Shown here piece by piece: positions 7,107 to 12,392 of a stretch of 12,392 nucleotides of DNA. The notes under the pieces are model-generated. The model was not told the origin of the DNA. It saw only the letters and a program-made list of their open reading frames with translations, and searched no databases. Positions within the stretch are counted from its first letter, which is position 1; each line of letters begins with the position of its first letter. This stretch comes from a virus. Taxonomy: Duplodnaviria; Heunggongvirae; Uroviricota; Caudoviricetes. The stretch lies in the IMG/VR virus record IMGVR_UViG_2579778982_000015, one strand, 5' to 3'. Both the position numbers and the translations under genes were made by a program.

Positions 7107-7510
7107 AGCTCTGGCCCACGCTGGGCGTCGCTTTCCTTCTGATTGCCGCATGGGGAACATCCATGCGTCTGTCGTGGTCGCTGGGCCGGGAGAACGCCAG
7201 AAACGAAGCGCAGGCCAGCACCCTGAAAAGTACCGCCGACACCCTGAATATCATCAGCACCGGGGTACAGGATATGCAGCAGGTGCTGGCGCAACTCCGC
7301 GTGGAAAATCAACAACGAAATCAGGACGGAGAGGCAAGACGTGAACAGCTACGCAACGATATTGCAAAAGATGAATGCGCCCACGCTTTGCCTGACGCTC
7401 GTTTTACTGACAGGCTGCGCAGGCACGCAGAACGCGCCACGGCCAGCGCCGTCAGTCCGGCTTATACCGCAGACGCTGACCATACCGGTAACGCCTCCCC
7501 CCTTCCCTGA
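7103..7510 (+). CDS. Rz-like inner-membrane spanin (LysB-like)
   Basis: ATG 7103 overlaps the endolysin stop. N-terminal TM segment LGVAFLLIAAWG followed by a Gln/Arg/Glu-rich coiled-coil-like region; position matches lysB/Rz. Confidence 0.7.
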   Translation: MKLWPTLGVAFLLIAAWGTSMRLSWSLGRENARNEAQASTLKSTADTLNIISTGVQDMQQVLAQLRVENQQRNQDGEARREQLRNDIAKDECAHALPDARFTDRLRRHAERATASAVSPAYTADADHTGNASPLP

Positions 7511-7661
7511 CACTCCCACATGGGGAAATCTCGGTATATGGGGCGACCGCCTTCTGGATGCACTGGAAACCTGTAACGCGGATAAACGGGCCATTGAATT
7601 ACTGGAACAGCGCAGGCTGCAACGACTGAACAACGAGGACAACAACCATGCTGAAAACTGA
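7341..7661 (+). CDS. Rz1-like outer-membrane lipoprotein spanin (LysC-like), starting inside the Rz gene in another frame
   Basis: Lipobox LLTGC after a hydrophobic signal (MNSYATILQKMNAPTLCLTLVLLTGC), then a proline-rich segment (PRPAPSVRLIPQTLTIPVTPPPFPDTP). Overlaps the 3' end of Rz in a different frame and extends beyond it. Start may be ATG 7341 or ATG 7371. Confidence 0.7.
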   Translation: MNSYATILQKMNAPTLCLTLVLLTGCAGTQNAPRPAPSVRLIPQTLTIPVTPPPFPDTPTWGNLGIWGDRLLDALETCNADKRAIELLEQRRLQRLNNEDNNHAEN

Positions 7662-8115: not shown

Positions 8116-8743
8116 GGCATTCACCCGCGTGGATGAAACCTTTGAGGCCATCCGCGACAGCCTGAATCAGCAGGCCATCAATAACATCGCCAGAAAGCTG
8201 GCACAGGATTTACGCCGCGCCCAGCAGGCGCGCATCCGGTCACAGAAAGCGCCGGACGGGACCGCATGGACACCACGCAGACGCCGCGTAACCCGGATAC
8301 AGGAGCGCATTCGCTTTATCTGGAATAACGAAGCACGCACGCTGAAAAACTGGCATCACGACACGGGGAAATACGGGCGAACCATCACCGGGTGGGATGA
8401 GGATAAAAACAACATCCGCACGTTTTACCGGGATGACATCGACCGCTTTCTGGAAATACGCACCCGGCGCATCAACCAGGACAGCACAAAGCGCGTCCCC
8501 ATGTTCGTAAAACTGCGCACCGCCCGCCACCTGAAAGCCCGTGCAGATGCTTCCGGTGTGACGGTGGGTTACAGCGGCGTAGCCGCACGTATTGCACGCG
8601 TTCATCAGTACGGTGAGCGCGATCAGGTTGCGCCGGGCATTTTCACCGATTACCCGGTACGTGAGCTGCTGGGTATCAGCCAGGCAGATGAGCGCCTGAT
8701 TTATAACACGGTGCTGGGCCGGATTGCGGAGGCTGTACGGTGA
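8108..8743 (+). CDS. S: Tail completion / virion morphogenesis protein S-like (P2 gpS / Mu G family), apparently extended
   Basis: ATG 8108 overlaps the R stop; the track's GTG 8099 is an alternative start. C-terminal region ARIARVHQYGERDQVAPG ... RELLGISQADERL resembles the gpS family. At 211 aa it is longer than my recollection of P2 gpS (about 150 aa). Confidence 0.7.
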   Translation: MDKAFTRVDETFEAIRDSLNQQAINNIARKLAQDLRRAQQARIRSQKAPDGTAWTPRRRRVTRIQERIRFIWNNEARTLKNWHHDTGKYGRTITGWDEDKNNIRTFYRDDIDRFLEIRTRRINQDSTKRVPMFVKLRTARHLKARADASGVTVGYSGVAARIARVHQYGERDQVAPGIFTDYPVRELLGISQADERLIYNTVLGRIAEAVR

Positions 8744-9186
8744 GCGCAGAACTCATGCGACTGCTGAGCAACATCATCCGCACCGGGATCATCTCTGAAG
8801 TTGATGAGAAGTCCTGGCGCGTGCGCGTTCGCAGCGGCGAACTGGAAACAGGCTGGTTACGCTGGAACACCACGCGCGCAGGAACCTTCAACGTGTGGCT
8901 GCCGCCATCACCCGGCGAACAGGTGGTAATTGCCTGCATTGGCGGCAACCCGGAAACCGCCATGATAATTGGCAGCCTGTGGAGTGATGCCAATCCGGCA
9001 CCCGGCAAAAGCCTGAAAGAAATCGTGATCAGCGCGCCGGACGGCGCGGTGTTCCGCTACGACGCGGACGCAGGCGCACTGAGCGCCAGCGGCATGAAAA
9101 CAGCCACCCTACAGGCATCCGTCAGCGTGAAACTGGATACGCCCGTCGTGGAATGCACAAACCTTCTGAAAACAGCCGACGATTGA
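8740..9186 (+). CDS. V: Baseplate assembly/spike protein V, N-terminal part (P2 gpV-like), truncated by frameshift
   Basis: GTG start overlaps the S stop (GTGA). Product contains MRLLSNIIRTGIISEVD ... GEQVVIACIGGNPETAMIIGSLWSDANPAP ... LDTPVVECTN, typical of gpV. Ends prematurely at TGA 9184..9186; the rest of gpV continues in the +1 frame. Confidence 0.8.
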   Translation: MSAELMRLLSNIIRTGIISEVDEKSWRVRVRSGELETGWLRWNTTRAGTFNVWLPPSPGEQVVIACIGGNPETAMIIGSLWSDANPAPGKSLKEIVISAPDGAVFRYDADAGALSASGMKTATLQASVSVKLDTPVVECTNLLKTADD

Positions 9187-9205
9187 CGTCACAAAAGGGG
9201 GAAAG

Positions 9206-9322
9206 ATGAGCGGCAATATCACGCACAGCGGCGGCGATTTCACCTCAAACGGCATCACAGTGCATACGCATAAACACGGTGGCGTGAAAGGCGGCAGCGA
9301 TTCGACAGGAGGCCCGCAGTGA
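9206..9322 (+). pseudogene. V: C-terminal tip segment of baseplate spike V in +1 frame (38-aa ORF MSGNITHSGGDFTSNGITVHTHKHGGVKGGSDSTGGPQ)
   Basis: Matches the conserved C-terminal apex of P2 gpV (recalled as ... KGGTMRGNIEHTGG ... HTHKH ...). Preceded by AAAGGGGGAAAG, which is also coding sequence in this frame (VTKGGK). Stop overlaps the GTG start of W. Separated from the main V ORF by an apparent single-nucleotide insertion near 9184. Confidence 0.6.
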
Positions 9323-9669
9323 CAACCCGCTACACAGGAATGAACCCGGACGGAACGGGAAACCTGAACGATATGGAGCACCTGAAACAGTCAGTCAGGG
9401 ACATCCTGACCACCCCGCTGGCAAGCCGGGTTATGCGACGGGAATATGGCAGCCTTGTGCCTGATTTGATTGACGAACCCATGAATAACACCACGCGTCT
9501 GCAATGCATGAGTGCTGCCGTGATTGCGCTGACACGATGGGAACCCCGCATTGCCCTGGACGCCATCGACGTTGTCTGGAAAGCAGGAGGCCGCGCAGGG
9601 GTGACGCTGTCGGGCACTGTCATGCAGACCATGCAGAATGTTGAATTAACCATCACGCTGAGAGAGTAA
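9319..9669 (+). CDS. W: Baseplate wedge protein W (P2 gpW / T4 gp25-like)
   Basis: 116 aa from GTG 9319; N-terminus MTTRYTGMNPDG mirrors P2 gpW MTARYLGMN; also SRVMRREYGSL and KWEPR-like motifs. P2 gpW is 115 aa. Confidence 0.88.
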   Translation: MTTRYTGMNPDGTGNLNDMEHLKQSVRDILTTPLASRVMRREYGSLVPDLIDEPMNNTTRLQCMSAAVIALTRWEPRIALDAIDVVWKAGGRAGVTLSGTVMQTMQNVELTITLRE

Positions 9670-11094: not shown

Positions 11095-12392
11095 ATGAGT
11101 ACCACAACACGAAAATTTAAAACCGTTATCACCAATACGGGTGCAAAAAAATTAGCGCAGGCAGCCACACCAGATGGTAAACCTGTCCGCCTGACTCATA
11201 TGGCCGTGGGTGACGGCGGCGGCACTTTACCCTCGCCAGACAGTAAGCAGACCCGTCTGGTGCATGAGGTGTGGCGACACACTGTTAATCGCGTCTTCCT
11301 GGACGCAACACATCAGAACCGCATTATTGCGGAGCTGGTTGTTCCTCCAGAAACGGGCGGATTCTGGATCCGGGAAATTGGTGTGTTTGATGAGCACGGC
11401 GATTTAATCGCAGTAGGCAATACTGCCGAAAGTTACAAGCCAACCGTTGCCGAAGGGTCAGGACGTGCACAAACATTTCGCACCATTCTGACCGTATCCA
11501 GCACTGCCACTATGGCGCTTACCGTGGATAACACCATGGTAATGGCCACAGTGGATTACGTGGATGACAAACTGAAAGAGCATGAACAGTCACGACGTCA
11601 CCCGGACGCCTCGCTGACCGCAAAAGGCTTTGTTCAACTTAGCAGCGCCACTAACAGCACATCTGAAACGCTGGCTGCGACACCTAAGGCTGTTAAGGCA
11701 GCATATGACCTGGCTAATGGCAAATACACCGCACAGGACGCAACCACTGCGCGGAAAGGGATAGTTCAGCTCAGTAGCGCCACCAACAGCACGTCTGAAA
11801 CGCTTGCGGCAACGCCAAAGTCTGTTAAGGCGGCATATGACCTGGCTAATGGCAAATACACCGCACAGGACGCTACCACTGCACGAAAAGGGATAGTTCA
11901 GCTCAGTAGCGCCACTAACAGCACATCTGAAACGCTGGCTGCGACGCCAAAAGCTGTTAAGGCGGTAATGGATGAAACGAACAAGAAAGCGCCCTTAAAC
12001 AGTCCTGCGCTGACCGGAACGCCAACAACGCCAACTGCGCCAAAAGGGACTAATAATACTCAGATCGCAAGCACGGCTTATGTGATGGCCGCGATTGCCG
12101 CACTTGTAGACTCGTCGCCTGACGCACTGAATACGTTGAACGAGTTAGCGGCGGCGCTGGGAAACGACCCGAATTTTGCGACCACCATGACTAAAGCGCT
12201 TGCGGGTAAGCAACCGAAAGATGCCACTCTGACGGCGCTGGCCGGGCTTGCTACTGCGGCAGACAAGTTTCCGTATTTTACGGGGAATGATGTCGCCAGC
12301 CTGGCAACCCTGACAAAAGTCGGGCGGGATATTCTTGCGAAATCGACCGTTGCCGCTGTTATCGAATACCTCGGTTTACAGGAAACGGTAAA
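11095..12392 (+). CDS. H: Tail fibre protein (P2 gpH-like conserved N-terminal domain plus repeat region), 3'-partial
   Basis: ATG 11095, 2 nt after the I stop. Open to the window end (432 codons). N-terminus MSTTTRKFKTVITNTGAKKLAQAA ... MAVGDGGG ... HEVWRH ... SYKP ... EGSGR ... DYVDDKLKEHEQSRRHPDASLTAKGF is the conserved gpH-type domain; followed by phage tail-fibre repeats. Confidence 0.88.
   Translation, partial: MSTTTRKFKTVITNTGAKKLAQAATPDGKPVRLTHMAVGDGGGTLPSPDSKQTRLVHEVWRHTVNRVFLDATHQNRIIAELVVPPETGGFWIREIGVFDEHGDLIAVGNTAESYKPTVAEGSGRAQTFRTILTVSSTATMALTVDNTMVMATVDYVDDKLKEHEQSRRHPDASLTAKGFVQLSSATNSTSETLAATPKAVKAAYDLANGKYTAQDATTARKGIVQLSSATNSTSETLAATPKSVKAAYDLANGKYTAQDATTARKGIVQLSSATNSTSETLAATPKAVKAVMDETNKKAPLNSPALTGTPTTPTAPKGTNNTQIASTAYVMAAIAALVDSSPDALNTLNELAAALGNDPNFATTMTKALAGKQPKDATLTALAGLATAADKFPYFTGNDVASLATLTKVGRDILAKSTVAAVIEYLGLQETV
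11623..11965 (+). repeat. About 2.6 tandem copies of a 132-bp (44-aa) tail-fibre repeat within gene H
   Basis: Copies begin at 11623, 11755 and 11887; unit K-G-[FI]-VQLSSATNSTSETLAATPK[AS]VKAAYDLANGKYTAQDATTAR; copies are about 90 to 100 percent identical at nucleotide level and in frame. Confidence 0.9.

Follow-up and report, generated by a model that had tools for sequence, protein, structure and literature searches.

An extra cytosine splits the baseplate spike gene V in the P88-like prophage contig of Escherichia coli S6685

The window analyzed here, 12,392 nucleotides in length, is the whole of contig JICA01000114.1 from the draft assembly GCA_000691105.1. The corresponding project, JICA00000000, is that of the enteropathogenic E. 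coli strain S6685 (O114, phylogroup B1, EPEC2 lineage, Kenya), whose Illumina HiSeq 2000 reads were assembled with Velvet (PMC4056304). The contig contains the late region of a P88-type prophage of the P2 family (Xuanwuvirus, Peduoviridae), with the portal and large-terminase genes on the minus strand and, on the plus strand, gpO, gpN, gpM, gpL, gpX, a holin, an M15 endolysin, LysB/LysC, gpR, gpS, V, gpW, gpJ, and gpI. The start of the tail-fibre gene is also present, the 12.4-kb contig ending within the portal gene on one side and the tail-fibre gene on the other. This gene order is identical to that of the P88 late operon, and the identity to P88 is 96.2% over 6.6 kb. Inside the tail-fibre gene, a tandem repeat at 11632–11965 (132-nt unit, 2.5 copies, 89% matches) is present in a different copy number in the aligned relatives. 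At 7341–7661 an embedded LysC frame (Rz1-like) overlaps both the DUF2570/LysB gene, at its end, and gpR, at its start, which arrangement is annotated likewise in the relatives and is normal for this phage group. In the gpM–gpL spacer the homopolymers T7 (about 5675) and C5 (about 5692) each differ by one base from those of two relatives (L004 and L005) and equal those of a third (L001); these differences upstream of gpL are a natural length polymorphism.

Gene V, encoding the central spike of the baseplate, occupies positions 8740–9322 of the plus strand within the series gpS-V-gpW-gpJ-gpI, and measures 583 nt as opposed to the 582 nt of its intact relatives; the split by a one-nucleotide insertion proposed in the first-pass annotation, which had been made from the sequence alone, is thus confirmed. 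The 5' fragment (8740–9186, plus strand) begins with a GTG, encodes 148 amino acids comprising the OB fold and the N-terminal ~55% of the beta-helical Phage_spike domain, and terminates in …VECTNLLKTADD, where two aspartates encoded by the shifted frame precede a premature TGA at 9184–9186, evident in both the sequence and the ORF list. A look-up with an alternative 143-aa start variant of this product gave no match. The 3' fragment (9206–9322, plus strand), in the +1 frame, encodes 38 amino acids (MSGNITHSGGDFTSNGITVHTHKHGGVKGGSDSTGGPQ) that make up the last strand of the beta-helix along with the Apex motif, and its ATG is the internal Met156 of the intact gene. Upstream, at 9194–9205 on the same strand, is the Shine–Dalgarno-like AAAGGGGGAAAG, which in intact genes codes for KGGK. 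The frame-0 stop, the histidine-rich tip ORF in the +1 frame, the Shine–Dalgarno-like run, and the ATG at 9206 were accordingly all found as first described. Nine residues of V, 147–155, are encoded by neither ORF.

The Pfam profiles divide along the same line. The OB fold was recognized in the 148-aa product as Phage_base_V (PF04717) at residues 14–81, scoring 57.9 bits (cutoff, 23.8). Of the 53 positions of Phage_spike (PF18715), 1–29 were matched in the 148-aa product and 39–53 in the 38-aa ORF, so that the profile search found the complete domain in no single chain among the products of the window; the repaired V sequence, by comparison, covers positions 1–53 with 81.7 bits. The GpV Apex (PF18946; 33.7 bits) occurred only in the separate 38-aa ORF: the apex with its HxH motif is not fused to the spike in the window, whereas it is fused in every relative examined. 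The closest known counterpart is gp35 of Escherichia phage P88, the Xuanwuvirus baseplate assembly protein V of 193 aa, with 95–96.6% nucleotide identity across the gene, the same neighbors (gpS upstream; gpW, gpJ, and gpI downstream), and the same succession of OB fold, beta-helix, and apex. V constitutes a single ORF in P88 and in all the other records examined, as opposed to the 148 aa plus 38 aa of the window.

Removal of the extra base restores an ORF of exactly the 193 aa predicted in the first-pass annotation, and both halves of the repaired protein aligned with the solved structure of P2 gpV (PDB 3QR8; E = 4.4e-49), in a match that takes in the tip KGG.M.GNI.H.GG…HTHKH and so bears out the similarity to the P2 C-terminus noted at first reading. 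The iron-loaded, membrane-piercing P2 spike (PDB 3QR8, 3QR7, and 3AQJ) shares with the window the tip KGGxMxGNIxHxGG…HTHKH, including the HxH histidine cage. The H-K-H codons lie at 9269–9277 on the plus strand, the first (9269–9271) being aligned with P2 His197 and the third (9275–9277) with His199, the two iron-coordinating residues of P2 gpV (bioRxiv 10.1101/2023.02.25.529910). The element belongs to the P2 family and its spike is homologous to gpV, but it is P88-like (Xuanwuvirus); P2 belongs to a different genus and has an intact V gene, and its gpV is of 211 aa instead of 193, the surplus corresponding approximately to a single additional repeat of the beta-helix (about 18–20 residues).

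A MAFFT alignment placed the insertion at position 9180 of the plus strand, as GCCGA[C]GATT, in a gap column where the base is absent from 84 of 85 sequences. That C lies outside any homopolymer, and the window reads as a common natural allele (…ACAGCCGA-GATTGAC…, encoding …KTAEIDVTKGG…) plus one C. The allele in question, allele A (CTGAAAACAGCCGAGATTGACGTC; KTAEIDV), is carried by 15 of the 80 IMG/VR loci, equals the window minus C9180, and also corresponds to the 457-member protein cluster P0001; without the extra C, the intact stretch reads GCCGAGATT. C9180 is, moreover, the sole private difference of the gene, all its other variable sites being common to at least two of the 84 other loci. 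The first-pass annotation had taken the T at 9184 for the extra base, and its removal would also restore the frame; but the resulting …TADDDVTKGG… occurs in no relative, and when judged against allele A the supernumerary base is C9180.

Two other derivations were considered. When the window is aligned with the commonest allele, …AGAACGGCGACGCTTGAC… (RTATLD), the gap may fall at 9176/9177, and the indel might then be viewed as a doubled C relative to allele B (…CAGCGACGCTT…). Such a placement needs two further private substitutions, found in none of the complete E. coli genomes, and the ancestor that it implies, CTGAAAACAGCGACGATTGAC, was absent from the GTDB representative genomes, with a best match of 98/100 in the complete E. 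coli genomes; since allele A explains everything with one event, we dropped this possibility. A chimera of the alleles A and B' containing both "extra" bases is formally possible, but it needs an out-of-register junction and k-mers present in neither parent, and is therefore disfavored for a de Bruijn assembly. On a fine scale the V gene of the window is a mosaic: rare alleles at 8859, 8880, and 8892 are shared only with the loci L001 and L045, between them a rare allele at 8884 is shared only with L026 and L027, and a patch of allele A at 9102–9182 is set within an L001-like backbone. This pattern could reflect natural recombination, homoplasy, or the consensus of two resident prophages.

All the close relatives that we examined have V as a single ORF of 582 nt and 193 aa. 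Such was the case for 13 phage records with 582-nt matches; in the IMG/VR loci residues 1–193 lay in one frame without exception (80 of 80); most of the best 120 protein clusters listed were of 193 aa; and every match listed from complete E. coli genomes had a single V ORF. A 33-nt pattern that tolerated the local polymorphisms while making the insertion obligatory had zero matches in the species-representative genomes, in IMG/VR, and in the metagenome collection. The gene itself is widespread, being present in 972 of 5,426 complete E. coli genomes, with up to three copies per genome; among those genomes, the 101-mer bearing the insertion found no exact match, and the 26 best-matching records, each at 100/101, all lacked the extra C. 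JICA01000114.1 is the one contig on record that has the exact 148-aa product. The absence of the insertion from the collections, together with the single ORF of the relatives, supports the choice set out at first reading between a sequencing or assembly error and an inactivating mutation.

The remainder of the contig is intact. The nearest relative, L001, an intact prophage from a Kenyan stool isolate, is 98.4% identical over 11,963 aligned nucleotides, within which the indel in V is the sole indel; and the other genes fully contained in the contig have lengths equal to those of their annotated intact counterparts. The prophage is therefore not generally decayed, and the decaying prophage entertained in the first-pass annotation is not supported; the lesion is isolated, and the assembly is not prone to indels. 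The lack of any other indel against L001, along with the equal lengths of the neighboring genes, also points to a recent lesion. One extra C breaks the V gene of an otherwise intact P88-like prophage, in an ordinary pseudogenising frameshift that is probably real and possibly an artefact. With a confidence somewhat above even, we consider the insertion most likely to be a recent, real mutation in the DNA that was sequenced, private or nearly so to S6685.

The possible artefact deserves weight, although we rate it as clearly the lesser probability. The V gene of S6685 would then be intact, the extra C having arisen from library preparation, low coverage, or the simplification of the Velvet graph; or else two P88-like prophages would have been collapsed into one contig with the lesion in one of the copies. 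Several observations fit with such an origin: none of the three collections scanned contains the insertion, and a single contig has its exact product; that contig is short, with both its ends in repeated phage genes, and a genome may hold up to three V copies; and the rare alleles of two lineages are interleaved at 8859–8892. Singleton one-base indels were likewise seen in 4 of the 84 other draft-derived loci over 2.5 kb, and with a background of about one indel per 50 kb, one event in 12.4 kb would be unremarkable. Yet the combination of Illumina reads with Velvet seldom produces insertions outside homopolymers, the k-mers of a de Bruijn contig must exist in the reads, no second indel appeared in 11.9 kb, and the identical insertion was found in an independent assembly. 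Between these two origins, we hold a real mutation to be roughly twice as probable as an artefact.

That independent assembly (locus L095; GCA_027273915.1, JAPXCL010000008.1, at about 2965–2975) has a stretch, GCCGACGATT, whose +C is identical to that of the window; its V haplotype, which departs from ours at 14 sites, also bears a change of G5 to G4. The assembly is very noisy (29 indels within 4.8 kb), so that chance may account for the coincidence, as may shared ancestry or a hot spot; nonetheless, we estimated the chance of the same base being inserted at the same site at roughly 0.001 per locus, and L095 thus lends moderate support to the existence of this +C in nature, where it may be recurrent or else be shared by way of a short tract of recombination.

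The recurrence in two haplotypes raised the question of a hot spot, in which the +C would arise repeatedly by perfecting a small quasi-palindrome, or of its arrival with a short tract of recombination. The inserted C does complete a hairpin, GACG-ATTGA-CGTC, which adjoins the palindrome TGACGTCA and brings the calculated DNA-folding energy to −4.3 versus −1.1 kcal/mol, and the allele-A patch (9102–9182) in the L001-like backbone has its right edge at this point. The stem, though, is of only 4 bp, and with a z-score of only −1.2 the fold is not significant; the carriers are only two, of which one is noisy; and the 26 best-matching complete-genome records are without the insertion. Within the window we found neither an ectopic donor nor a templating repeat for the +C. 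An origin of this kind accordingly seems improbable to us.

The 38-aa ORF is by no means peculiar to S6685. Its exact sequence has been called as a gene of its own on 43 contigs, and close variants on 109 (the variant P0137) plus 15 more. When we read 13 other split loci, the upstream lesions differed from one another and the frames were both +1 and −1: the run corresponding to 9197–9201 was shortened from G5 to G4 in five of them (L090, L091, L095, L098, and L102) and lengthened to G6 in one (L088); A4 had become A3 in two (L092 and L103) and A3 had become A2 in another (L089); codon 144 had turned from AGA into the nonsense TGA in L086; and internal deletions were present in L087/L093 and L101. 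Several of these assemblies are full of other frameshifts. In L086 (metagenome contig ERZ27305501 k141_46389) the independent nonsense mutation precedes the lesion of the window by three codons and leaves a pair of ORFs of 143 aa and 38 aa. Immediately before Met156, the A4G5A3 run (9193–9204) is one base shorter or longer in many independent assemblies, each such change yielding a split of 155 aa plus 38 aa; the run is a hot spot of slippage or of sequencing error, and accounts for dozens of 38-aa "baseplate assembly protein" entries. Because the intact gene has an in-frame Met156 behind the Shine–Dalgarno-like run that codes for KGGK, the 38-aa ORF is called whenever V breaks between about codon 120 and codon 155. 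An aberrant V of another sort, the NCBI protein P0057 from a 5.7-kb contig, continues after …LLKTA with a duplicated stretch from upstream, read in the +1 frame (…GRGVPLRRGRRR…), which suggests a duplication or a misassembly that joined CAGCC|GGACGG-like sequences near the same spot.

Since the lesions comprise homopolymer slips, a nonsense mutation, and deletions, in both frames, the splitting of V is a recurrent breakage, partly at the slippage-prone A4G5A3 run, and not a conserved arrangement. This diversity weighs heavily against a functional split gene, in which a blunt 148-aa spike would assemble noncovalently with a separate 38-aa tip, or in which a programmed +1 frameshift would occur at GAU-UGA-C. 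Certain features do speak for a function: the ATG at 9206 is preceded, at a distance of 4 nt, by a strong Shine–Dalgarno-like sequence, the separate ORF is annotated on dozens of contigs, P2 gpV folds with its apex removed, that apex being dispensable, and the UGA-C stop context resembles the prfB recoding site. But the same Shine–Dalgarno-like sequence and ATG are present in all the intact genes, where they serve as KGGKM codons; the cut falls within a domain, with the loss of nine residues; and the shared two-ORF arrangement with conserved frames that would denote a functional pair did not emerge from the comparison of homologues. We thus assign to a functional split a very slight probability, in keeping with the earlier opinion that a separately made tip was the less likely explanation.

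Programmed +1 frameshifting of the prfB type, in particular, is excluded for practical purposes: the site is not conserved, in that all the relatives examined are in frame and the insertion pattern had no match in the three collections; the GAU codon, read by tRNA-Asp, cannot re-pair in the +1 frame; and, upon inspection of the window, no stimulatory Shine–Dalgarno element, to be expected about 3 nt upstream of the shift site, was found in the preceding ACAGCCGAC, the Shine–Dalgarno-like run being located downstream. Spike bodies and sharp, metal-binding tips do reside in separate ORFs in T4 (gp5 plus gp5.4) and in the type VI secretion system (VgrG plus PAAR) (PMC12407873), and the window resembles those systems in having body and tip on two ORFs. 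There, however, the split is conserved and lies at a domain boundary, with the tip an independently folding PAAR-type protein, whereas in the window it is private, within a domain, and born of a frameshift. A two-piece spike of the gp5/gp5.4 kind is not supported, because the break is off the domain boundary and is not conserved.

Under the preferred reading, that of a pseudogenising insertion, the extra C at 9180 would shift the frame of V and translation would stop four bases later, the resulting 148-aa spike being expected to lack about the last third of the intertwined beta-helix as well as the iron-binding apex; the 38-aa "tip ORF" would be the leftover 3' end of V and no more. V is essential in P2, in which the amber mutant Vam1 fails to grow on a nonsuppressing host. 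The loss of the apex alone is, nevertheless, not lethal in P2, where gpV truncated after residue 196 so as to delete the apex (gpV-DEL, residues 1–196; Miller et al., bioRxiv 10.1101/2023.02.25.529910) still folds and assembles, with an efficiency of plating similar to that of the wild type; the equation of no apex with no infectivity is therefore wrong. The product of the window resembles that engineered spike in being apex-less, but its chain stops about 30 residues earlier, at a break within PF18715 (position 29 of 53) that is equivalent to about residue 166 of P2 gpV, so that about a third of the beta-helix is also gone. Because this cut is deeper and within the beta-helix, inactivation is likely here, and the truncation would probably leave the spike crippled or blunted. 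That the apex-less 148-aa spike still gives infectious particles, with the 38-aa tip peptide perhaps also docking noncovalently, we consider very doubtful; if true, this would extend the dispensability of the P2 apex, known from the laboratory, to a spike that occurs naturally and is far blunter.

The finding has little significance beyond annotation, the gene being a well-known phage gene and the lesion an ordinary strain-specific one or else an assembly error. In annotation the two ORFs should be treated as a single pseudogene, a frameshifted V, and the 38-aa "baseplate assembly protein" entries of the databases are fragments. The stretch near codons 144–155 of the P88-type V, comprising the A4G5A3 run and its neighboring sequence, is broken repeatedly in assemblies, for which reason isolated "apex" ORFs should not be taken for a new family of small proteins. 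As to the prophage itself, if the lesion is real, the S6685 element would probably form no fully functional virions unless a co-resident relative supplied gpV.
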